Positions 663-49,443 are shown, counted from the stretch's first letter. The stretch is 64,000 nt of DNA from Brevinema sp. (GCA_051649245.1 JBOFGS010000012.1:104510-168509); one strand, 5' to 3'. Notes: generated by a model not told the origin, from the letters alone. Translations and numbers: made by a program.

Positions 663-694
663 AAAAAATTCCTTATCTAATTTTTGTTATATAG

Positions 695-723
695 ATTATA
701 AAATATTACTATTTAAATGTCAA
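695..723 (-). promoter_or_regulatory. Sigma70-like promoter for mutS2 (TTGACA-17-TATAAT)
   Basis: On the minus strand TTGACA is at 723..718 and TATAAT at 700..695, with a 17-nt spacer. It lies about 33 nt upstream of the GTG start. Confidence 0.55.
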
Positions 724-747
724 CGTTATATAAATAAAGAGGTACCT

Positions 748-1503
748 ATGTTAAACAAAAAAAATATGATGCCTATCTTATCAACAATTGTTTTTTGGTT
801 TGTTATGTTTTTTAACTACAAGAGCTCATCTCAAATCAGTGGAATATCTGATAAAAATATGACCTTAATTACGCCTATTGATTTCACTTTTAGTATTTGG
901 GGAATTATTTATATTTTGGGATTAGTGGTATTATTATTGTTTTGGAGAAATTTTTTTCAAAAAAAAGAAACAGATCTACAGATCTTTTTGATCTACAATC
1001 TTGTATTATTGTTGAATACTCTTTGGATTTTTGTTTGGTTAAGAGAATTTATCTTTCTATCATGGGTCGTTATTTTTACTATTTTAATGTTGTTAGTTTA
1101 TATTAACCATTACATCATTACTAAACCATACCAAGATTCAAAAATCATCTCAATTTTTTTTGAGATCCATTTAGCATGGATTTTGGTTGCCTTTTTCTTG
1201 AATGGTTTAGTAGTCTGGAACAATTATCATGAGATTAGTAATGATTATGGATCCTACAGTCTTGCAATAGCAGCATTGATCATGATTATTCTTTTTGCAA
1301 ACTTTCTCTTATTTAAAGCCAATAAATTCTATTTTATGATCGTTATTTTATGGGCATTATATGGTATTTTAATGAATATAGATAATAATAATTATTTATT
1401 TTATTTTTTTATTCGTCTGTTATTTTTGTTCCAATTTATTATTTTTATTTTCAGAGGAATTTATATTGCGATCTATCAACAAAAGTTTATAAAAAAACAA
1501 TAA
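748..1503 (+). CDS. Trp-rich polytopic membrane protein, TspO/MBR-related
   Basis: I chose the internal ATG at 748, which has AAAGAGG 5 nt upstream, over the track start at 643. Motifs ISDKNMTLITPIDFTFSIWGIIYILGL and LWIFVWLREF plus multiple TM segments resemble the long tryptophan-rich sensory protein family. Confidence 0.5.
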   Translation: MLNKKNMMPILSTIVFWFVMFFNYKSSSQISGISDKNMTLITPIDFTFSIWGIIYILGLVVLLLFWRNFFQKKETDLQIFLIYNLVLLLNTLWIFVWLREFIFLSWVVIFTILMLLVYINHYIITKPYQDSKIISIFFEIHLAWILVAFFLNGLVVWNNYHEISNDYGSYSLAIAALIMIILFANFLLFKANKFYFMIVILWALYGILMNIDNNNYLFYFFIRLLFLFQFIIFIFRGIYIAIYQQKFIKKQ

Positions 1504-1523
1504 CGACACAATTATGTGTCGTT
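1502..1523 (+). terminator. Hairpin terminator after the TspO-like gene
   Basis: AACGACACA-atta-TGTGTCGTT (9-bp stem) overlaps the stop codon and is followed by TTATTGTTT. Confidence 0.5.
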
Positions 1524-1654
1524 ATTGTTTGAAAGAGGTTCCGGAGGGGAGATTGGCTGTATTTTATTTATACTTATCTCCGACTACCGAAACAGGGAAT
1601 AATTATTTTATTTTTGCTTTGTACTTTATAATTTTCGACTCAATGATAAAAAAC

Positions 1655-1728
1655 TTTAGGATACTAATAAAAATAATAAAAAAAGACTCAATTGAGTCTT
1701 TTTTTATTATTTTTATTAGTATCCTAAA
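1655..1728. repeat. 74-bp perfect palindrome (37-bp arms), probable bidirectional terminator core with an unusually long extension
   Basis: Checked base by base: 1655-1691 is the exact reverse complement of 1692-1728. The core is A7-GACTCAATTGAGTC-T7 and the outer arms are TTTAGGATACTAATAAAAATAAT / ATTATTTTTATTAGTATCCTAAA. It lies 19 nt past the MCP stop codon. Confidence 0.9.
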
Positions 1729-1746
1729 TAACTATTTGTTTCTATT

Positions 1747-3804
1747 TTATTTAGCAGTAATTGTTGTTTGATCAACTTCGTTTTTATTTGGCGTGATTAT
1801 TTCTTGTGAATCTTCTTCATATATTGATCGTTGATGATTTGTTTTTTTGTTCTTTATTTTTGTAATCTCAGATAATTTTTCTGAAACATTATTTTTTATA
1901 CTTCCCAGATCGTTAATAATAGAAAGTAGATCTTGCATATTTCTGAGAGTTTCTTTTTCAAACATCGGAATCATTATTGTTTTTTCACGTAATAATTGAA
2001 TATCATTTTGTTGTTTTTTGAGTAATTCATGATATGTATCTAAGAAACTTAAAAAATTATTAATATTATTGAATGCTTGTTCTGACATTTTTCCTTGTAA
2101 ATCTGTAGATTCACAGGTTTTTGATGCTACTAATTCGATATTTCTAAAATTTTCAATAACACGTCTCATGATGGTGTGAGATTCTGTAATTAACATATGA
2201 TTTTCATCTGTGATTTGTTCCAAATTAGACACCTTAGCTACTGCTATTTTGATAAAGTTTTGAATGCTAATTAATTTTTGTGAAATATCATCTACAGCAT
2301 CACTTGAAGCAGTAGCTAAAGCTCGGACTTCATTAGATACAATAGCAAATCCTTTTCCTGCATTACCAGCATGAGCTGCTTCTAGTGCGGCATTAATCGA
2401 TAAAATATTTGTTTGTTCTGCTATATCCTGAAGTAAAAGTAGTATTTCGTCAATAAATTCTGCCTCTGTTCCTGCAGATTTGATATTTTGACTAATCGAA
2501 TGCATAGAATCAGTGATAATCTTGCTTTTCTTCATCGTATTCTCAAGTTTATCCATAATGATGGATGCATTAGAAATACAAAGCGAACATTGATATTTGA
2601 TTTCATAAGCAAGCTGTAGGATGTAGTAAGTTTCGTTTGATAAAGAAGTATTATCTTTAAAATCATGATTTAGTTTATCGAGAGATTCTTGAAAATTTAA
2701 TATAATTTTTGAAATATATTGTGAAAGATGAGATAAAGAATTAAATGCATCTGAAGACTCATCAAAGCGTGGTAATTGATTGAGTGAACCGTATGTTAGC
2801 ATCAAATTTTTTAAAGATTGATTAAAAGAATTATTGATTTTTTGTGTATGAGCCAGTGAATCAGAGATCTTTAAGATATATTTATTAAAATATAATGTTA
2901 TTTTGTCTTGATGCGGTGATATCATATGTGAAAAATCTGCATTTTCTTGTTGTACCATTTGTTCCAGATAAATTTCAAAGAGATGCATATGATTTTCTTC
3001 TTGTTTTCCGTACGCATTGTTTAATAAAAAAGAATAGAAAATAATAGTACCTATAGCGAGTAATATTTGAGGTATATGTGCAACTAAGTGATAAGGAGGA
3101 TAATTATTTTGCGTATAAAATCTTATGAAAGGATGGATATGAAATATGAAGATAAACATTAGTGTTGCAAATAATAATAAGGAAAATCTTATTTTGTTAT
3201 AGTATAGTTTACTGAGTTGATATGTGCAGAAACGATGTGTTTGAAAGTAATGAAAAATCATTTGATTGGATAGTTCGAAAATTTTGCTGGAAATATACCA
3301 TAGAATAATAATAAAACCATTTTGTAAAATCAGTAATTGTGACTTAGTAAAATGGGGTACCAGCTGTGACGTGCCAATTTCTTTATTATAAGCAAACAAT
3401 AAGATAGCTAAAGGTATCCAAAATAGATAATGAAATCCATATAAAACATAATGCTGTGAAAAAATTGATTGCTCTTCTGAATGTAAAAATAATCGATGAA
3501 TAGGAAATAGATAGTAGAAATAAGCTATTAATTGAACGATATGTGCAATGAATAAATACATTAAAAAAATAGGAATGTGAATCTTGATATTAATAATCGT
3601 AATAGTTTTGGAGTGTTCTAATAAAACATCAACAATTCCATTAGGTAGATAAAACTCTAAATAACTCCAGAGAAAAAGTAATAATGCATTTAATGGAAAT
3701 AACATTAAGAGATTCATCATTATTAATTTTGTATTATTTATTCTAATATCTGATATTGTTATTGTGTAGTCACCAAATTCTTTAAAATGTTTAAAATTTT
3801 TCAT
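1747..3804 (-). CDS. Methyl-accepting chemotaxis protein with a polytopic (about 6 TM) N-terminal membrane domain
   Basis: MCP signalling-tip signature EQTNILSINAALEAAHAGNAGKGFAIVSNEVRALA. The N-terminal ~270 aa are almost entirely hydrophobic helices. I see no obvious periplasmic domain or HAMP. Confidence 0.85.
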   Translation of the reverse strand: MKNFKHFKEFGDYTITISDIRINNTKLIMMNLLMLFPLNALLLFLWSYLEFYLPNGIVDVLLEHSKTITIINIKIHIPIFLMYLFIAHIVQLIAYFYYLFPIHRLFLHSEEQSIFSQHYVLYGFHYLFWIPLAILLFAYNKEIGTSQLVPHFTKSQLLILQNGFIIILWYISSKIFELSNQMIFHYFQTHRFCTYQLSKLYYNKIRFSLLLFATLMFIFIFHIHPFIRFYTQNNYPPYHLVAHIPQILLAIGTIIFYSFLLNNAYGKQEENHMHLFEIYLEQMVQQENADFSHMISPHQDKITLYFNKYILKISDSLAHTQKINNSFNQSLKNLMLTYGSLNQLPRFDESSDAFNSLSHLSQYISKIILNFQESLDKLNHDFKDNTSLSNETYYILQLAYEIKYQCSLCISNASIIMDKLENTMKKSKIITDSMHSISQNIKSAGTEAEFIDEILLLLQDIAEQTNILSINAALEAAHAGNAGKGFAIVSNEVRALATASSDAVDDISQKLISIQNFIKIAVAKVSNLEQITDENHMLITESHTIMRRVIENFRNIELVASKTCESTDLQGKMSEQAFNNINNFLSFLDTYHELLKKQQNDIQLLREKTIMIPMFEKETLRNMQDLLSIINDLGSIKNNVSEKLSEITKIKNKKTNHQRSIYEEDSQEIITPNKNEVDQTTITAK

Positions 3805-3822
3805 AATTTACTCTATACTATC

Positions 3823-5775
3823 TTATTTATTTGAGCTGAGCGTACTGTCAATAATTTGTTTGATTTGTAATTCTTTAATTTGCCATTGATACTGTATGCT
3901 GTCTATTTTCTGCAAGGTGTTGAAATTATCTGAAATATAATTTTTATATACTTCAAGATGTTCATAAAGATCATAAGATAGTGGTTTATTTTTTGTAATA
4001 TCATTACTTAATGAGGTTAAGAAATTGGTAATTGATATGGAAGATTGTTCTTCTTGTTCGAAAACATTAATATTCTTGATCACTCTATCAGTAAATGTAT
4101 TGATATTGTAATTTAAAAGTTGTGTATTTTGTATTGAAATTTTTAAATCTTGAGTAATCTGTTCAGATTCTCTAATATTTTTTTCAATAGCTTCGATACT
4201 TTCTGTTGATAGAACAATCGAACTTTCAATGAAATGTTTGATAACAGAAACTCTTAGAGCAATGTTATTGACTGCATCATGTGACATGTCTGCAAGGACA
4301 CGTATTTCTTCTGCAACACTTGAAAAATCAGAACTTGAAGACCCACCATGTGCTGCTTCTATTGAAGCACTAATAGACAGTAGTTTGGTTTGTTCAGTAA
4401 TATGTTTAATAATATCTAAGATTTTATTAATATTGTTGGTTTCAATAGCTGTATCTTCAATAATTGTAAAAATTTCTTCAATTTGTTGTTTGATAGATCC
4501 ACTAGTAGAAATAAACGATGTCAATGATGTAGTGCTTTCTTCTGTAGATAATAAACATTGGATATGTTCTTGATTCAGAGAATCAAAAGAATGCGACAAT
4601 CTTTCTGAATTTATCGCAAGACTGTTGATTTGTTTGTTGATATTTTCGAAAATTTGTTGCTGATTATTAATGCAAACAACTAGCTGCTCCATATTATGAT
4701 TAATGGTTTTTTTACTTATTGCCAAATCTATAAACATCACTTTTTGATTTTGAACCATATCAATAAATTCTGTTATTTTGTCTGTTAATTTCTGCCGATA
4801 ATCTACCATCTCCGTAAAAGCATCAAATGTTTTTTTGAATTTTTTAAATATCGTTATGAAAAAAATATTTAATGAGCTAACTACACGTCGTATGATGTTG
4901 TTTTCTTGATAGAAAAACGATATCGGTTTTAAACCATTTTGTGAAGCAAGATTTAGAAAAGAGTAGATGTTATTTTTAACATTTGAAATCAAGCTATTAT
5001 AAAAGTAAATAATGGTGAGTATACAAATTATAATCATAAAAATATTACCATTATTATAATTTATGACAGAATCAATTATTGTTAGATTTTGAGTTTCTTT
5101 GCTAAGATTATCCAAATTCAATATTGTTTTTAAAATGCTTAGAATAATTAACAAACTCATCAAAACATATAAAATCGATATCTTAGGTATTGATCCACGA
5201 ATATTTTGTTGAGATTGATTATCTTTATCAAAGTATTGTTCAATAGTGGTATTTGCTTCTAAAAGTCCATAAACCATAAGATATCCTGTTACAATTTGCC
5301 ATAAGACACGATAGATTGTATCTAGAATAAGTATTTTAGATTCATGTTGTTGGGACTGCTCCATAGCAATAAGATGTGTCATACTTAAGACTATTATACT
5401 TGAAATGAGTGATAACCATAGCATTGTGTTTGGATGTGTGAATCGTTGCAGTGCTTGTTCGTATTTTACATTGTATTTTAAGTATTTTTTTATAGGATTA
5501 ATATATATAGAAATCCCAATCCACTGTATCACAGTAAAAAATAAATAAAATAATAGTGACTCGGAATGCCCGAAATTTGCAAGAATATCATTTAATGATA
5601 ACGTCTTATTTGTATAGATCTTGTTCATATTGATAAAAATTTCTTGTAGCATCGCAAAAGGAATGGAAAGCATAAAACAGATAGCATAAACTTTACTAAT
5701 AAAGACTTTTAAATAGGCATCACGTTCTTTTTTAGGATCTAAAGAAGTAGAAAATGATTTTTCTTGATTTGACAT
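3823..5775 (-). CDS. Methyl-accepting chemotaxis protein paralogue with a polytopic N-terminus and a divergent signalling tip
   Basis: EQTKLLSISASIEAAHGGSSSSDFSSVAEEIRVLADMSHDAV aligns to the MCP tip, but the G(R/K)GFA core is replaced by SSSDFS. The N-terminal half has about 6 TM segments. Confidence 0.75.
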   Translation of the reverse strand: MSNQEKSFSTSLDPKKERDAYLKVFISKVYAICFMLSIPFAMLQEIFINMNKIYTNKTLSLNDILANFGHSESLLFYLFFTVIQWIGISIYINPIKKYLKYNVKYEQALQRFTHPNTMLWLSLISSIIVLSMTHLIAMEQSQQHESKILILDTIYRVLWQIVTGYLMVYGLLEANTTIEQYFDKDNQSQQNIRGSIPKISILYVLMSLLIILSILKTILNLDNLSKETQNLTIIDSVINYNNGNIFMIIICILTIIYFYNSLISNVKNNIYSFLNLASQNGLKPISFFYQENNIIRRVVSSLNIFFITIFKKFKKTFDAFTEMVDYRQKLTDKITEFIDMVQNQKVMFIDLAISKKTINHNMEQLVVCINNQQQIFENINKQINSLAINSERLSHSFDSLNQEHIQCLLSTEESTTSLTSFISTSGSIKQQIEEIFTIIEDTAIETNNINKILDIIKHITEQTKLLSISASIEAAHGGSSSSDFSSVAEEIRVLADMSHDAVNNIALRVSVIKHFIESSIVLSTESIEAIEKNIRESEQITQDLKISIQNTQLLNYNINTFTDRVIKNINVFEQEEQSSISITNFLTSLSNDITKNKPLSYDLYEHLEVYKNYISDNFNTLQKIDSIQYQWQIKELQIKQIIDSTLSSNK

Positions 5776-44320: not shown

Positions 44321-47300
44321 ATGAAAATATTATGTACTGCGGATTGGCATATTGGCAAAAAATTAGAAGCATTTTCACGTTTGGATGAGCAAAGAGACAT
44401 TTTAAATCAAATTTCTACGATTTCTCAATCACATATGGTAGATGTTGTTATTGTGGCAGGAGATTGTTTTGATACTCAGCATCCAAGTCCTGAGATGACT
44501 AAATTATTTGTTAAAACCTTAGCTGATTTATCCAGAAATGGTGAATGTCTTGTATTGGTAATTGCCGGCAATCATGATAATCCTTTGTTTTTGTCAACAT
44601 CAGAGGCTTTTGCGTCTCAACTTGGTGTTGTTATTGTAGGATATCCTGACGATATTCCACATCTTGAAGATCAAGATTCTCCTTGGAGTATTTTATCGCA
44701 AGATAAAGGTATGATTGAAATATTATTCAAGAAAAAGAAGAAAAAAATAAGATTTTTACTGACTCCCTATGCAAACGCACAACGTCTCAAAAAAGATCTT
44801 GGAACTGAGGATACAGATAAAAAGGCATGGGATATTCTTTGTGATCAATGGAGAAAAAATATTTCTCATGAGGATGATGTTACTAATATACTGGTAACGC
44901 ATTATTTTGTACAATCAGAATCATCAGGGGATCTTTATCAGGATTCTCCATTAGAAGAAGATGATACAGAACGATCTATGGTTGGAACAATTGGAGCAAT
45001 GTCTATGGCTACTGTTCCAGAAGGGATTGATTATATGATTTTAGGTCATATTCATCGACCTTATTCGCTTTATTCCTCGAAGGGAATTCATGCTATGTAC
45101 ACAGGTAGCCCTTTGCCGTATAGTATTAAAGAAACTTCTTATCAAAAAAGTATTTTATTATTGGATATCTCAAAAAAAAAATCAACAGAACGTATCCAAC
45201 TTTCTGTAAAACGAACTATTAAAGAAATAATATTTAATAATTTTGAAGATATTTTTGAACGTTTGGATATAGAAAAAGAGAACTATGTAACATTGATTTG
45301 GACAGGTGATCGTTATTTTACTGCCGAAGAACATGTGAAGTTGAGAGAATCTCATCCTCGTATTCTGAGGATTGAGTCTTGTGCCAAGATCGAAGAAAAT
45401 CCCCTCAATCACGATTTGGATCGTATCAAACACCAAGATCCACGGATGTTATTTGAAGAGTATTTTGGATCAAAAAATAAAGGACAACAACCACCAGAAG
45501 ATCTTCTTGAAGTTTTTGACGAGGTATTGTCCGAAGAACACTCACACCATCCTCTGCTTAGAAAGCAAGGTTTTCTACCAAAAAAACTGCTGATTAAAGG
45601 TTTTTACTCTTATAAAAATTTAGTGGAGATTGATTTTTCAGAGTTTAACGGAAAGAACTTTTTTGGAATTTTTGGAGCTGTTGGTAGTGGTAAATCTGCT
45701 ATTATTGAAGCAATGATTTTTGTGTTATTTGGTAGGGTAAAGCGATTCGGCTCTATCAAAGCATCATCAGGAAATTTTTCCGTTACTTATGGGATGATGA
45801 ATCTTGAATCTACAGAGATGTTGATTGAATTTGTATTTGAAATTATGGGTCAGGATGGGTTAGAAGAGTATCTTTGTCGGATTTCTGGAAAGCGTGATAA
45901 AAAAGATTTTACAAAAATTCTTCCCATAAAACGTGAGTTTTTTATTAATCATCATCAAGAATGGATTTCTTTTGACTATGATTTGAGTACTGTTGGGGAA
46001 GAAATCTTAGGGATTTCATATGATGATTTTTGTAAAACTATCATTTTGCAACAACGTGATTTCGATGGATTTCTGTCTTCAAAACCTGCCGAAACAGCAG
46101 ATACGCTTATGCGACTTTTTCAATTGGAACGTTTTGATTTATCATTAAGAGTAGATTTGGTAAGTAAAGGTTTGGCAGCAGAAGTAGATTCTTTAAAACA
46201 GAAAATTGATGAGCTATTATTAATTTCTGAAGAATATGTAGCAGAATTAGAATCTGAACATACACAGTTACAAGAAGAACTGAACGACGACAATATATTA
46301 CTCCAACAAAAACGTACTTATCTTTATCAACTTGAGCAAAAACATGAACAAAAACGTCGTTTTGAAGAGATAAAAAAACATCGGCAGGAATTACTTGATC
46401 AAAAAGATGAATTTGATAAGGCAAAACAGCGAAATCATATCCAACCAATTATTGATGCTGTCACCAAACTCAAAGAATTAAATCAACAGCAGTCATTGTT
46501 GTTCTCTAAAAAAGAAGATCTTGAAAAATTAATTAATCAGTATGTATTGCAAGAACAAGTAGAAACAACAAAATCAGAAGATCTTTTTCAAAAAATTGCA
46601 TCTGTTCAAAAAGATATTCACGATATCGAACAAGAACGAGAGGCTTTGTTAAGCGATACTTTGAATGATAATCATCATAAATTGATGTCTTTTGACGGAT
46701 GTATTAAATTTGTGGAAGATAGAGAAGCACGTTTGGTAATTGTTTCAAAAAAAATAGAAGAACACAAGCAAAAATCTGAAAACATATCTGAACTTACAAA
46801 AAAATTATCATTATTGCAAGATCAAGAAAATGAAATCAGAAAAAACAAAGGAGCTCAGGCGTTGTTGATGTATTTAAAGGATAATGCTCCTTGCCCTTTG
46901 TGTGGCTCTGTGGAACATCCAAATCCTTGCCAGAGTGATGATGATGTCAATTTAGAAGAAATTTTGCAACATATTAGTGTCATTCAAAAATCCCTGCAAG
47001 AATCAACAACAGCAGCATCACAATATCAAGAATGTCTTTCTGATAAACTGTTGTTAGAACAAGAAATACAAGAAAAATTAGGGGAATTTACTGATATTGA
47101 TTCCTTAAAAAAGGAATATCATTCTATATCAAGATTCCAGCAAGAAAAAGAAAAAAAGATAAAATTATTAAAGAAAAAAATTGATGAACATACATGTTTA
47201 TTGAAAAACTTAGACTCAGAAAACAATCAATGTGCTAAAAAATTGCAGGAGATTGCAGCTCACTTAATTAAATATCATGAGCAAATCAACAATATTTCAG

Positions 47301-48178
47301 ATCATGTGAATACTATTAATAACGAAATAGAGCAAGTAACGTTACAAAAAGATAAAGAAATTAGCCGATTAGCGATTACTAAAGAAGAATATTTAAAAAT
47401 TTGTACATATCCACAAAAATCATATAATGATATAGATTCTTTTTTTTCAGAATTGGCTCGTGTCGAAGGACATTTTGAAACATTATCCATAATTTCTTTT
47501 GAAGATGAGATGGAATCAGATCTTGAAACAGCTACTAAAGAAAAAGATGAATTGGAAGTTTCTTATAGTCAAAAACAACAAAAACTTGGTTCTATTTTGA
47601 CTAAAATAGAACAAACCAAATCATTACTCCAACAAAAAATTATTGTTGAGAAAAAATATCAAGTAAGCTTGATTCGTAAAAACAATTTAGATATATTGAC
47701 AAAACTATTTAAAGGTAAAGGCTTTGTTTCTTTCATTGGGCAAAAATATCTGAAAAAATTGTGCTATACGGCAAATAATCGTTTTATCAGATTTACAAGC
47801 AATCAATTTGAGCTTGTAGCTCCTGATGATGTCAATAAATCAGGTGTTTTTTTAATTGATCGTTTATCTGGAGGTGCTGCAAGAGATACTTCTACTCTTT
47901 CCGGTGGTCAGCGTTTCCAAGCTGCCTTAGCGTTGGCTCTAGCGTTATCTGATGAAAGTGGAGCAGGTCATCGATTTTTCTTTATTGATGAAGGATTTGG
48001 TTCTTTAGATGAGGAAAATTTATACTTGGTGTTGGAAACATTACGAAAAGTTGCACAAGAAGAACACCGTATTGTTGGTTTGATTTCACATGTGCCTATG
48101 ATCAAAGAAGAAGTTGAAATCTATTTACATGTGTTCTATCATCATATTAATGGATCAACCATAGACATGATCGAATAA
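44321..48178 (+). CDS. sbcCD: Fused SbcD (Mre11-like nuclease) and SbcC (Rad50-like ATPase) in a single 1285-aa polypeptide
   Basis: The N-terminus carries phosphoesterase motifs DWH, AGDCFD, AGNHDNP, VTHYF and GHIHRP. From about residue 425 come Walker A GAVGSGKSA, Q-loop IILQQRDFDGFL, long coiled coils, zinc hook CPLCGSVEHP, signature LSGGQRFQAALALALAL, Walker B FFFIDEGFGSLD and H-loop GLISHV. I chose the ATG at 44321 after AGGA; the track start is a TTG. Confidence 0.85.
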   Translation: MKILCTADWHIGKKLEAFSRLDEQRDILNQISTISQSHMVDVVIVAGDCFDTQHPSPEMTKLFVKTLADLSRNGECLVLVIAGNHDNPLFLSTSEAFASQLGVVIVGYPDDIPHLEDQDSPWSILSQDKGMIEILFKKKKKKIRFLLTPYANAQRLKKDLGTEDTDKKAWDILCDQWRKNISHEDDVTNILVTHYFVQSESSGDLYQDSPLEEDDTERSMVGTIGAMSMATVPEGIDYMILGHIHRPYSLYSSKGIHAMYTGSPLPYSIKETSYQKSILLLDISKKKSTERIQLSVKRTIKEIIFNNFEDIFERLDIEKENYVTLIWTGDRYFTAEEHVKLRESHPRILRIESCAKIEENPLNHDLDRIKHQDPRMLFEEYFGSKNKGQQPPEDLLEVFDEVLSEEHSHHPLLRKQGFLPKKLLIKGFYSYKNLVEIDFSEFNGKNFFGIFGAVGSGKSAIIEAMIFVLFGRVKRFGSIKASSGNFSVTYGMMNLESTEMLIEFVFEIMGQDGLEEYLCRISGKRDKKDFTKILPIKREFFINHHQEWISFDYDLSTVGEEILGISYDDFCKTIILQQRDFDGFLSSKPAETADTLMRLFQLERFDLSLRVDLVSKGLAAEVDSLKQKIDELLLISEEYVAELESEHTQLQEELNDDNILLQQKRTYLYQLEQKHEQKRRFEEIKKHRQELLDQKDEFDKAKQRNHIQPIIDAVTKLKELNQQQSLLFSKKEDLEKLINQYVLQEQVETTKSEDLFQKIASVQKDIHDIEQEREALLSDTLNDNHHKLMSFDGCIKFVEDREARLVIVSKKIEEHKQKSENISELTKKLSLLQDQENEIRKNKGAQALLMYLKDNAPCPLCGSVEHPNPCQSDDDVNLEEILQHISVIQKSLQESTTAASQYQECLSDKLLLEQEIQEKLGEFTDIDSLKKEYHSISRFQQEKEKKIKLLKKKIDEHTCLLKNLDSENNQCAKKLQEIAAHLIKYHEQINNISDHVNTINNEIEQVTLQKDKEISRLAITKEEYLKICTYPQKSYNDIDSFFSELARVEGHFETLSIISFEDEMESDLETATKEKDELEVSYSQKQQKLGSILTKIEQTKSLLQQKIIVEKKYQVSLIRKNNLDILTKLFKGKGFVSFIGQKYLKKLCYTANNRFIRFTSNQFELVAPDDVNKSGVFLIDRLSGGAARDTSTLSGGQRFQAALALALALSDESGAGHRFFFIDEGFGSLDEENLYLVLETLRKVAQEEHRIVGLISHVPMIKEEVEIYLHVFYHHINGSTIDMIE

Positions 48179-48209
48179 AAAACACCCGTCCATATGACGG
48201 GTGTTTTTT
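48177..48209. terminator. Bidirectional terminator between the sbcDC fusion and a convergent gene
   Basis: A-run-ACACCCGTC-catat-GACGGGTGT-T-run. Confidence 0.7.
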
Positions 48210-48224
48210 ATGATTATCTTTGTA

Positions 48225-49157
48225 TTAACTTGGTCGGACGACTCTTCTTTGTGCTGGTCGTTGATTTGTTGTGACTACTTTTCTTTGAACTTTTTGAGTA
48301 TTACTTCTTACAGTTTTTGTAGGAGTTCTTCTAGGTGTCGCATTAGTTTTTGTGTTGGTAGCAACAGTATTTGTAGGTTTGTTTACATAGTTAGGATCAA
48401 CAAGACGTTGATACAAATCAATACTTTTAACAAAAACATCTCCAAGAGTTTGTACTTTAAGTCCTGTTAGTGTTGTATCTAGATAGCCTTTATCACTATA
48501 AGCTCTTACTTTAAATAATTTTAAGGGACGAGCAAAAAAGGTTCTGAGATCTACAACTTCTTTTTGGTTAGGAGTAGATTTCAACCAATAGTTATAGTTG
48601 ACATCATAATCACTGAGACTTAATTCTGTTTCTTGGTTTCGTGATTGAAGAACTAATTCTGTTGAAAATCCTTCAGACACAAATTTTATTTTCGTAAAAT
48701 TCATCTTTTCTTTTTCTAATTGAAGCAATGATGCAGGAGTAAAACTAGGACGAGTTCTGATCCCACGAACAGGAGACACACGAGAAATATTATATAAAAT
48801 GGCAATTGCTAATGTACTGGTTCCACGATCTAATGTGAAAATATGTGGATAGAATGATAGTTTCCCTATATTAACACGTACTTGAGACCATGCAAAGGAA
48901 CCTGTTAATGATGGAAAAGCAAAAAATGTTGTCTCAAATAAAACTCCACGATTCCCTGTGGTTGTAGAATTGTTTTCAGCATCTTTGTGATAGATAATGC
49001 GACCATTATCGATACTGTCTTCTAACGTCTTAAATGTTGGATCTCCAGAATAGACAGTCCATTTATACTGACCAAAAAGAGCATGAGGGACAGCTAATAA
49101 GATAGCTATTATACATAACTTATAATTCAATTTGATATATGCTCGAAATAAGTTCAT
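48225..49157 (-). CDS. Exported protein with a basic Thr/Arg/Pro-rich disordered C-tail, unknown function
   Basis: I chose the ATG at 49157, 8 nt after GGGAG, giving MNLFRAYIKLNYKLCIIAILLAVPHALFG-Q. The C-terminus reads TNATPRRTPTKTVRSNTQKVQRKVVTTNQRPAQRRVVRPS. Confidence 0.5.
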   Translation of the reverse strand: MNLFRAYIKLNYKLCIIAILLAVPHALFGQYKWTVYSGDPTFKTLEDSIDNGRIIYHKDAENNSTTTGNRGVLFETTFFAFPSLTGSFAWSQVRVNIGKLSFYPHIFTLDRGTSTLAIAILYNISRVSPVRGIRTRPSFTPASLLQLEKEKMNFTKIKFVSEGFSTELVLQSRNQETELSLSDYDVNYNYWLKSTPNQKEVVDLRTFFARPLKLFKVRAYSDKGYLDTTLTGLKVQTLGDVFVKSIDLYQRLVDPNYVNKPTNTVATNTKTNATPRRTPTKTVRSNTQKVQRKVVTTNQRPAQRRVVRPS

Positions 49158-49443
49158 TCTAAAAACTCCCACTGATAATATAATATAATTTCGGTAGTTA
49201 ATCGGAAATAACTTTAATAAAATCTATAATATATTGTGATTGATATTATCATTATTTTTATTTATGAATATAAACTTTATCATACTTTATTATATCGACA
49301 ATAAGTTGAAAAAACTAAATTATTTATTATTATTTTCTATAATTTATTTTTTGGTATGTTGTAAAAAAATATGGAAATAGTATACAGATCATGATTTATT
49401 CTAAGCTATCAGATATTATATTTGTATAATTGGTTTGAAATAC

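Follow-up and report, generated by a model that had tools for sequence, protein, structure and literature searches.

A natural SbcD-SbcC (Mre11-Rad50) fusion gene conserved across Brevinemataceae

A reading frame in the genome of a Brevinema sp. raises the question of whether the nuclease SbcD (Mre11) and the ATPase SbcC (Rad50), which canonical systems make as two polypeptides from two genes, are encoded here as a single chain. The frame occupies positions 44321-48178 of the window, the 64,000-nucleotide stretch of DNA analyzed (GCA_051649245.1, JBOFGS010000012.1:104510-168509), which has a G+C content of ~30% and belongs to a 1.53-Mb genome that is 94% complete in 24 contigs. A sequence-only reading of the window had described one frame holding SbcD and a complete SbcC, and this description was confirmed by the open reading frame (ORF) itself, by matches to both halves in Pfam and NCBIfam searches, and by homologues. 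The best explanation, to which a probability of roughly 0.85 is assigned, is that the product of the gene is a genuine and functional SbcD-SbcC enzyme made as a single chain. The observations described below show directly that the ORF is unbroken, that both of its parts are complete and conserved, that the gene is present as a sole copy, how it is distributed among lineages and that the fusion arose independently.

Results

One reading frame contains a complete SbcD and a complete SbcC

The ORF and its parts, defined by translation, profile matches and alignments, are located in the window as follows.

44321..48178, + strand: fused sbcD-sbcC ORF, 1285 amino acids (aa) from the ATG at 44321, stop codon TAA at 48176-48178 (ORF listing and translation)
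44321..45061, + strand: SbcD/Mre11 nuclease domain (calcineurin-like phosphoesterase), residues 1-247, motifs I-VI intact (Pfam Metallophos 1-247)
45062..45538, + strand: SbcD capping domain, flexible tether and C-terminal helix-loop-helix (predicted to bind Rad50), residues 248-406 (sbcd_Bac and stand-alone SbcD alignment)
45539..45571, + strand: fusion linker, residues 407-417 (SHHPLLRKQG region), 11 residues (alignment of 14 homologues)
45572..46135, + strand: SbcC/Rad50 N-terminal ATPase lobe, residues 418-605, with Walker A at 452-459 (nucleotides 45674-45697) and Q-loop Q577/Q578 (Pfam AAA_23, SMC_N)
46136..47695, + strand: antiparallel coiled-coil arms, residues 606-1125, with the zinc hook C858-P-L-C861 at nucleotides 46892-46903 (translation)
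47696..48175, + strand: SbcC/Rad50 C-terminal ATPase lobe, residues 1126-1285, with LSGGQ at 1193-1197 (nucleotides 47897-47911) (Pfam SbcC_Walker_B and PDB match)

A TTG at 44315 offers an alternative start, which would extend the ORF to 44315..48178 (+ strand) and the protein to 1287 aa.

The phosphoesterase motifs of the SbcD part are DWH (residues 8-10), GDCFD (47-51), GNHD (83-86), THY (H194) and GHIH (242-245), and residues D8, H10, D48, N84, H85, H194, H243 and H245 are invariant in alignments with 14 fused homologues and 16 split relatives. Metallophos (PF00149) matches residues 1-247 with a score of 55.9 against a cut-off of 21.5, and with the NCBIfam model TIGR00619 (sbcd) the protein reaches 149.6 bits where 77.65 are required. 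The SbcD is also full length, with positions 1-385 of the 390-position sbcd_Bac profile aligning to residues 1-406. When residues 1-700 were searched with HMMER against 1.84 billion representative proteins, stand-alone SbcDs of ~405 aa aligned end to end with residues 1-406, and residue 2 of stand-alone SbcCs (~1010-1040 aa) aligned with residue 419. SbcD therefore ends near residue 406 and not, as first proposed, near 420. Sixteen of the nearest split SbcDs terminate 2-10 residues past an 'LF.EIL' motif, of which the window version is VFDEVL, with its last residue at 403. The predicted helix-loop-helix region of SbcD is present, judging from an alignment that reaches the C terminus of stand-alone SbcD and from two helices predicted in a homologue, P0015.

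The SbcC part carries Walker A (GAVGSGKSA, 452-460), the Q-loop (QQ, 577-578), the zinc hook (CPLC, 858-861), LSGGQ (1193-1197), a Walker B/D-loop that reads FFFIDEGFGSLD (1219-1230) and the H-loop (S1256-H1257). The hook is positioned midway between the two head lobes. All of the SbcC ATPase motifs are invariant across the 14 homologues, as are hook residues C858, C861, G862, S863, H866 and P867; the earlier statement that every motif is intact thus held throughout, including the position given for CPLC. In Pfam, AAA_23 matches residues 422-694 (score 49.2, cut-off 27) and SbcC_Walker_B matches 1187-1242 (27.6, cut-off 27). NCBIfam SbcC models align with residues 420-1280, but below their curated cut-offs. 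By sequence, the best PDB matches are Escherichia coli SbcC and SbcD as separate chains (6S6V and related entries); residues 841-1035 of E. coli SbcC (6s6v_C) match the C-terminal lobe, and E. coli SbcC also aligns at the N-terminal lobe and the hook.

The fused frame is conserved across the family

Searches of NCBI, ENA, JGI and Logan protein data found 14 fused homologues that are full length (1164-1293 aa) and share 38-52% identity with the window protein at 98-100% coverage; the protein of the cultured Brevinema andersonii is one of them. A partial copy from a separate metagenome-assembled genome (MAG), 96-97% identical, covers residues 1-700 uninterrupted. No stop codon breaks the fused frame in any of the 12 Brevinemataceae genomes examined, which represent 3 genera; two of these genomes yielded contig-end fragments only, and both fragments span the junction. 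The fusion is thus genuine and conserved, and the fused protein is very probably functional. Public annotation of the gene in B. andersonii and in Brevinema MAGs reads 'exonuclease subunit SbcD' only.

SbcD and SbcC are joined by a short linker of constant length

The window junction reads ...EVL403-SEEHSHHPLLRKQG-F418-L-P420-KKLLIKGFYSY. In 64 split-relative loci, sbcC begins 'MIPxxLxxxGLYSY'. These starts, together with the alignment of the stand-alone SbcD and SbcC ends at residues 406 and 419, indicate that F418 replaces the initiating methionine of SbcC and that residues 407-417 form the linker. Its length is constant to within ±1 residue across the 14 homologues. Residues 407-413 vary, and residues 414-417 form part of an invariant motif, [RK]-K415-x-G417-F418-[LY]-P420. 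The junction codons of 11 genomes differ at both synonymous and nonsynonymous sites, with the frame kept. Both the unvarying [RK]KxGF[LY]P motif and the fixed length of the linker argue that purifying selection has acted to keep the two parts joined.

The same stretch bears on whether one ORF could give rise to two products, through internal initiation, -1 slippage or proteolysis of the linker, in which case the working enzyme would be the usual two-subunit complex. An A7 run (45580-45586, cca aaa aaa ctg) lies near the junction and has, at codons 420-422, the A_AAA_AAA form of a slippery heptamer; read from the window sequence, a -1 slip there would meet a TAA three codons later and leave an SbcD-only product of ~425 aa. 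The variable segment 407-413 is, moreover, probably exposed. Against this, none of the 11 genomes has an ATG, GTG or TTG codon at the SbcC N terminus or close to it (codons 418-419), A-runs shift position between homologous genes, and the junction proper of three loci (L006, L008 and L011) contains no run of at least five A's. Internal initiation and programmed slippage are therefore unlikely, and a programmed frameshift at the A7 run was rejected as a conserved mechanism because such runs vary in position and are absent at several junctions. Since the invariant motif and fixed linker length also argue for selection on the joined protein, we consider production of two working subunits from this ORF very unlikely.

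A homologue model resembles SbcD and SbcC folds

An AlphaFold2 model was made for homologue P0015 (1164 aa), with the 14-sequence alignment, and not for the 1285-aa window protein. In order, it predicts the nuclease and capping domains, then a tether of low confidence (residues 352-364) and, at the helix-loop-helix position, two helices (368-379 and 387-397), followed by a short connector, the first SbcC β-strand (412-419), long coiled-coil helices around the hook and the C-terminal ATPase lobe. In Foldseek comparisons, the P0015 model matched the Rad50/SbcC chains 7yzo_D (TMt 0.77) and 7yzp_C (0.66) and the SbcD/Mre11 chains of 7dog (TMt 0.75-0.78) and 6s6v_A/B (0.55-0.57).

Among the Spirochaetota surveyed, the fused state is confined to Brevinemataceae

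Of 301 Spirochaetota genomes surveyed, from 125 genera, only those of Brevinemataceae have the fused state, and all 12 of them have it. In the five other families of the order Brevinematales (G012-G034), no SbcD passed the family cut-off and nothing SbcC-like matched the window protein, and SbcCD thus seems absent from most of the order, as far as sequence searches indicate. The other order of the same class carries a distant, split SbcD/SbcC pair. The candidate spirochaete fusion in genome G253 was rejected: its reported 1631-aa open frame comprises a split SbcD (399 aa) and SbcC (1180 aa), 141 nucleotides (nt) apart.

The search of 1.84 billion representatives found only 12 clusters matching across the junction, Brevinema-type homologues included. 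A further fusion similar to this one in both halves to a like degree would have scored higher than the best single-domain match (228 bits), and none did. The nearest split relatives, 30-36% identical, with 31-36% over the whole length of SbcD, are mostly from Bacteroidota, with a few from spirochaetes, Margulisbacteria and Pseudomonadota. A maximum-likelihood tree of the SbcD part places the Brevinemataceae in one clade with a Shimodaira-Hasegawa-like approximate likelihood ratio test (SH-aLRT) value of 99, and as sister to, not nested within, a split Bacteroidota-type group (SH-aLRT 83). Because all SbcD parts from the family fall into one clade, the tree indicates, in our reading, that fusion happened once, in the ancestor of Brevinemataceae. 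Horizontal acquisition of the sbcD-sbcC operon is possible.

Fusion could arise easily from the gene order of split relatives, as their genes overlap, nearly abut or share a frame. In the 64 split-relative loci sbcC directly follows sbcD, and the commonest arrangements are an ATGA overlap (20/64) or a gap of 2-3 nt. In a spirochaete of genus f22/g30 (locus L102, G189:C19:20500-26500, at 669-4943), sbcD (383 aa) and sbcC (1033 aa) share a reading frame. A single TAA and 21 nt separate the two, and one substitution in the stop codon would fuse them.

Comparison with known Mre11-Rad50 systems

Natural Mre11/Rad50 (SbcD/SbcC) fusions were described by Yoshida, Claverie and Ogata (2011, Virol J 8:427; PMC3175470), and the architecture has thus been known since 2011 and is not new in principle. 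That report listed Mimivirus R555, Bacillus phage 0305phi8-36, Clostridium kluyveri plasmids, Anaerostipes, Ruminococcus and a Deferribacter megaplasmid, together with algal, moss and amoebal proteins among eukaryotes, and it noted that joining the proteins in this order agrees with the structure of the complex (PMC3175470). The fusions fall outside the canonical clades, are mostly plasmid-borne or viral and usually share their genome with a normal split pair, Deferribacter excepted (PMC3175470). Literature phrase searches on natural fusions returned this paper only, and no paper linking Brevinema with SbcC, SbcD, Mre11 or Rad50 was among the top-ranked results. The novelty implied by the sequence-only reading accordingly finds no support: fusions of this kind were already described, and the fused gene proved to be the standard deposited and annotated form in its lineage. 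The structural call stands.

The Brevinema protein resembles the 2011 fusions in having an N-terminal nuclease, a C-terminal ATPase, a short linker after the helix-loop-helix, a retained hook and a single ORF. Unlike them, it belongs to the canonical type, is encoded on the chromosome as the only copy and has become fixed in its family; an independent canonical-type fusion with these properties is what is new here. Compared with the window protein, the C. kluyveri pCKL555A fusion (1258 aa) shows no more than 20-24% identity (E = 5e-5 and 0.023), and its TIGR00619 score of 64.7 bits lies below the cut-off of 77.65. On account of this low identity kinship between the two was rejected, and they are best regarded as products of independent events. 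The published C. kluyveri fusion (L106, 9316-13092, - strand) is annotated 'metallophosphoesterase', and pCKL555A itself, with tail, tape-measure, holin and ParM genes, looks like a phage-plasmid. At its junction, the position of SbcC Met1 is taken by a G-x-F-x-P pattern similar to the GF[LY]P of Brevinema.

Canonical SbcCD, represented by E. coli SbcC2D2 (6S6V, 6S85, 7YZO and 7YZP), shares with the Brevinema protein the nuclease and ATPase motifs, the capping domain, the helix-loop-helix and the CxxC hook. The order, sbcD then sbcC, is also the same, in the split pairs of Bacteroidota as elsewhere, and the homologue model matches the canonical folds. The canonical complex comes from two genes and two polypeptides, whereas the Brevinema protein is one polypeptide with F418 in place of Met1 and a ~11-residue linker containing [RK]KxGF. 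Engineered single-chain or linked Mre11-Rad50 head constructs, in which the Rad50-binding region of Mre11 is tethered covalently to Rad50, have been made for crystallography. Those constructs are artificial and truncated; the Brevinema protein is natural and full length.

Genome context of the fused gene

Three further features flank the coding sequence.

44071..44143, - strand: tRNA-Thr (TGT), divergent 5' neighbor of the fused gene (ARAGORN)
44255..44284, + strand: promoter-like site TTGTTA-18-TATAAT, ~37 nt 5' of the ATG (consensus scan, pattern match only)
48175..48211, + strand: intrinsic-terminator-like hairpin, a 16-bp stem followed by a T-run, overlapping the sbcD-sbcC stop codon

Promoter-like sites are no more numerous across the region than in shuffled sequence by the same consensus scan. 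With a promoter-like site of its own and a strong terminator hairpin, the fused gene looks monocistronic.

The fused gene is the sole SbcCD-type locus in the genome. A candidate second SbcD on contig C19 was rejected; it is a 342-aa generic metallophosphoesterase that has the N-terminal motifs only, scores 44.5 bits with TIGR00619 against the cut-off of 77.65, and adjoins a peroxiredoxin gene and not an SMC-like ATPase. The usual downstream recombination partners exist, since the genome encodes RecA and, ~14-17 kb upstream of the window start, an AddA-like ORF of 1116 aa (G000:C12:87611-90829). The latter matches positions 10-1233 of the AddA model with a score below the family cut-off and is a candidate AddA/RecB-like helicase-nuclease; such a protein could act after SbcDC.

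These surroundings also bear on whether the gene is a mobile-element-derived or defense-type fusion, acquired horizontally beside a tRNA gene, and not a housekeeping SbcCD. That view draws on the five other families of the order that lack an SbcD above cut-off, on the distant split type carried by class-mates, on nearest relatives that are mostly Bacteroidota, and on the neighboring tRNA gene, a common integration site. However, the tRNA-Thr lies immediately 5' of the fused gene in seven other Brevinemataceae loci (L002-L007 and L012), a second genus included, and this neighbor is therefore conserved across the family. On the 3' side, a convergent ORF without a Pfam match is followed by glyS, which is also downstream in L002, the only other locus showing glyS. 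A scan of eight flanking ORFs (37.8-43.1 kb and 48.2-52.2 kb) found no integrase or other mobile-element gene; these eight comprise ankyrin-repeat ORFs, glyS, a plsY-like gene and two ORFs without a Pfam match. The sole-copy status of the gene argues in the same direction, as does the SbcD score of 149.6 bits, which passes the cut-off that the distant C. kluyveri phage-plasmid fusion fails. Plasmid and phage collections searched with tblastn contained no close fused relative, only split pairs of at most 32% identity. A mobile or defense origin in place of a housekeeping role is thus decidedly improbable, and an ancient horizontal acquisition of the operon would leave the function unchanged.

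The convergent ORF (48225-49172, - strand, 315 aa) encodes a protein with no Pfam match, a hydrophobic N-terminal segment and a basic C-terminal tail rich in Thr, Pro and Arg. On the other side of the fused gene, four of five consecutive ORFs at 37845-43127 (- strand) encode ankyrin-repeat proteins of 299, 431, 323 and 303 aa (Ank_2, E down to 1e-65); the fifth, of 208 aa, has no Pfam match, and the 303-aa protein has a signal-peptide-like N terminus. Ankyrin clusters are unusual among free-living bacteria. The cluster would fit a host-associated lifestyle, perhaps with its proteins as secreted effectors.

Discussion

We propose that an ancestral, canonical operon of Bacteroidota-like sbcD and sbcC lost its gene boundary once, in the ancestor of Brevinemataceae, and that since then the helix-loop-helix C terminus of SbcD would have been joined to the first β-strand of SbcC through the ~11-residue linker. 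By analogy with the E. coli and Thermotoga maritima complexes, two such chains would dimerize via their SbcD nuclease domains, their ATP-engaged SbcC heads and their zinc hooks, and the result would be the usual M2R2 architecture with its stoichiometry fixed at 1:1. Each helix-loop-helix would bind the base of the coiled coil in the same chain, an arrangement that a short linker should permit. In T. maritima the Mre11 C terminus lies ~28 Å from the Rad50 N terminus, a distance for which a linker of 9-12 residues suffices (PMC3175470), and it is from this estimate that we infer docking in cis. The enzyme may then cleave hairpins and blocked DNA ends ahead of the AddA-like helicase-nuclease and RecA. 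Its activity and the route of fusion we likewise infer.

Certain observations weigh against a functional single-chain enzyme. The NCBIfam SbcC models score below their cut-offs, TIGR00618 at 180 bits against 478.5 and sbcc_Bac at 173 against 1420. The confidence of the AlphaFold2 model is moderate (predicted local distance difference test 72.8, predicted TM-score 0.42), and the model is of the homologue P0015 rather than of the window protein. The long stem branch of the family, with 1.94 changes per column, allows some functional drift, and post-translational proteolytic separation within the linker is possible. Separately, an artefact in which a missed stop codon or an indel merged two adjacent genes, for example at the A7 homopolymer of the junction in this 24-contig draft, is effectively ruled out by independent assemblies: the frame is continuous in the 12 genomes and 14 homologues, from four independent data sources that include the cultured B. 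andersonii, residues flanking the A-run are conserved in the same frame, and the run is absent or displaced in other genomes.

A genuine single-chain SbcD-SbcC would, if the proposal is correct, be a ready-made natural Mre11-Rad50 (MR) for structural and single-molecule work, a protein of fixed stoichiometry suited to biochemistry and cryo-electron microscopy, and one of its sources, B. andersonii, is cultured. The label 'exonuclease subunit SbcD' on proteins of 1160-1300 aa hides the SbcC half, and automated surveys would score Brevinema as lacking SbcC. The chances are about even, in our estimate, for a broader set of implications: that a canonical MR works as an obligate single chain and only copy, that the full ATP cycle tolerates a ~11-residue tether, that [RK]KxGF[LY]P is a new selected structural element, and that the family's ancestor may have received the fused operon horizontally from a donor resembling Bacteroidota, SbcCD having been lost earlier from the order. 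A canonical-type SbcCD that is the sole copy in its genome and has stayed fused throughout a family suggests that the enzyme can do its housekeeping work without exchange of subunits.

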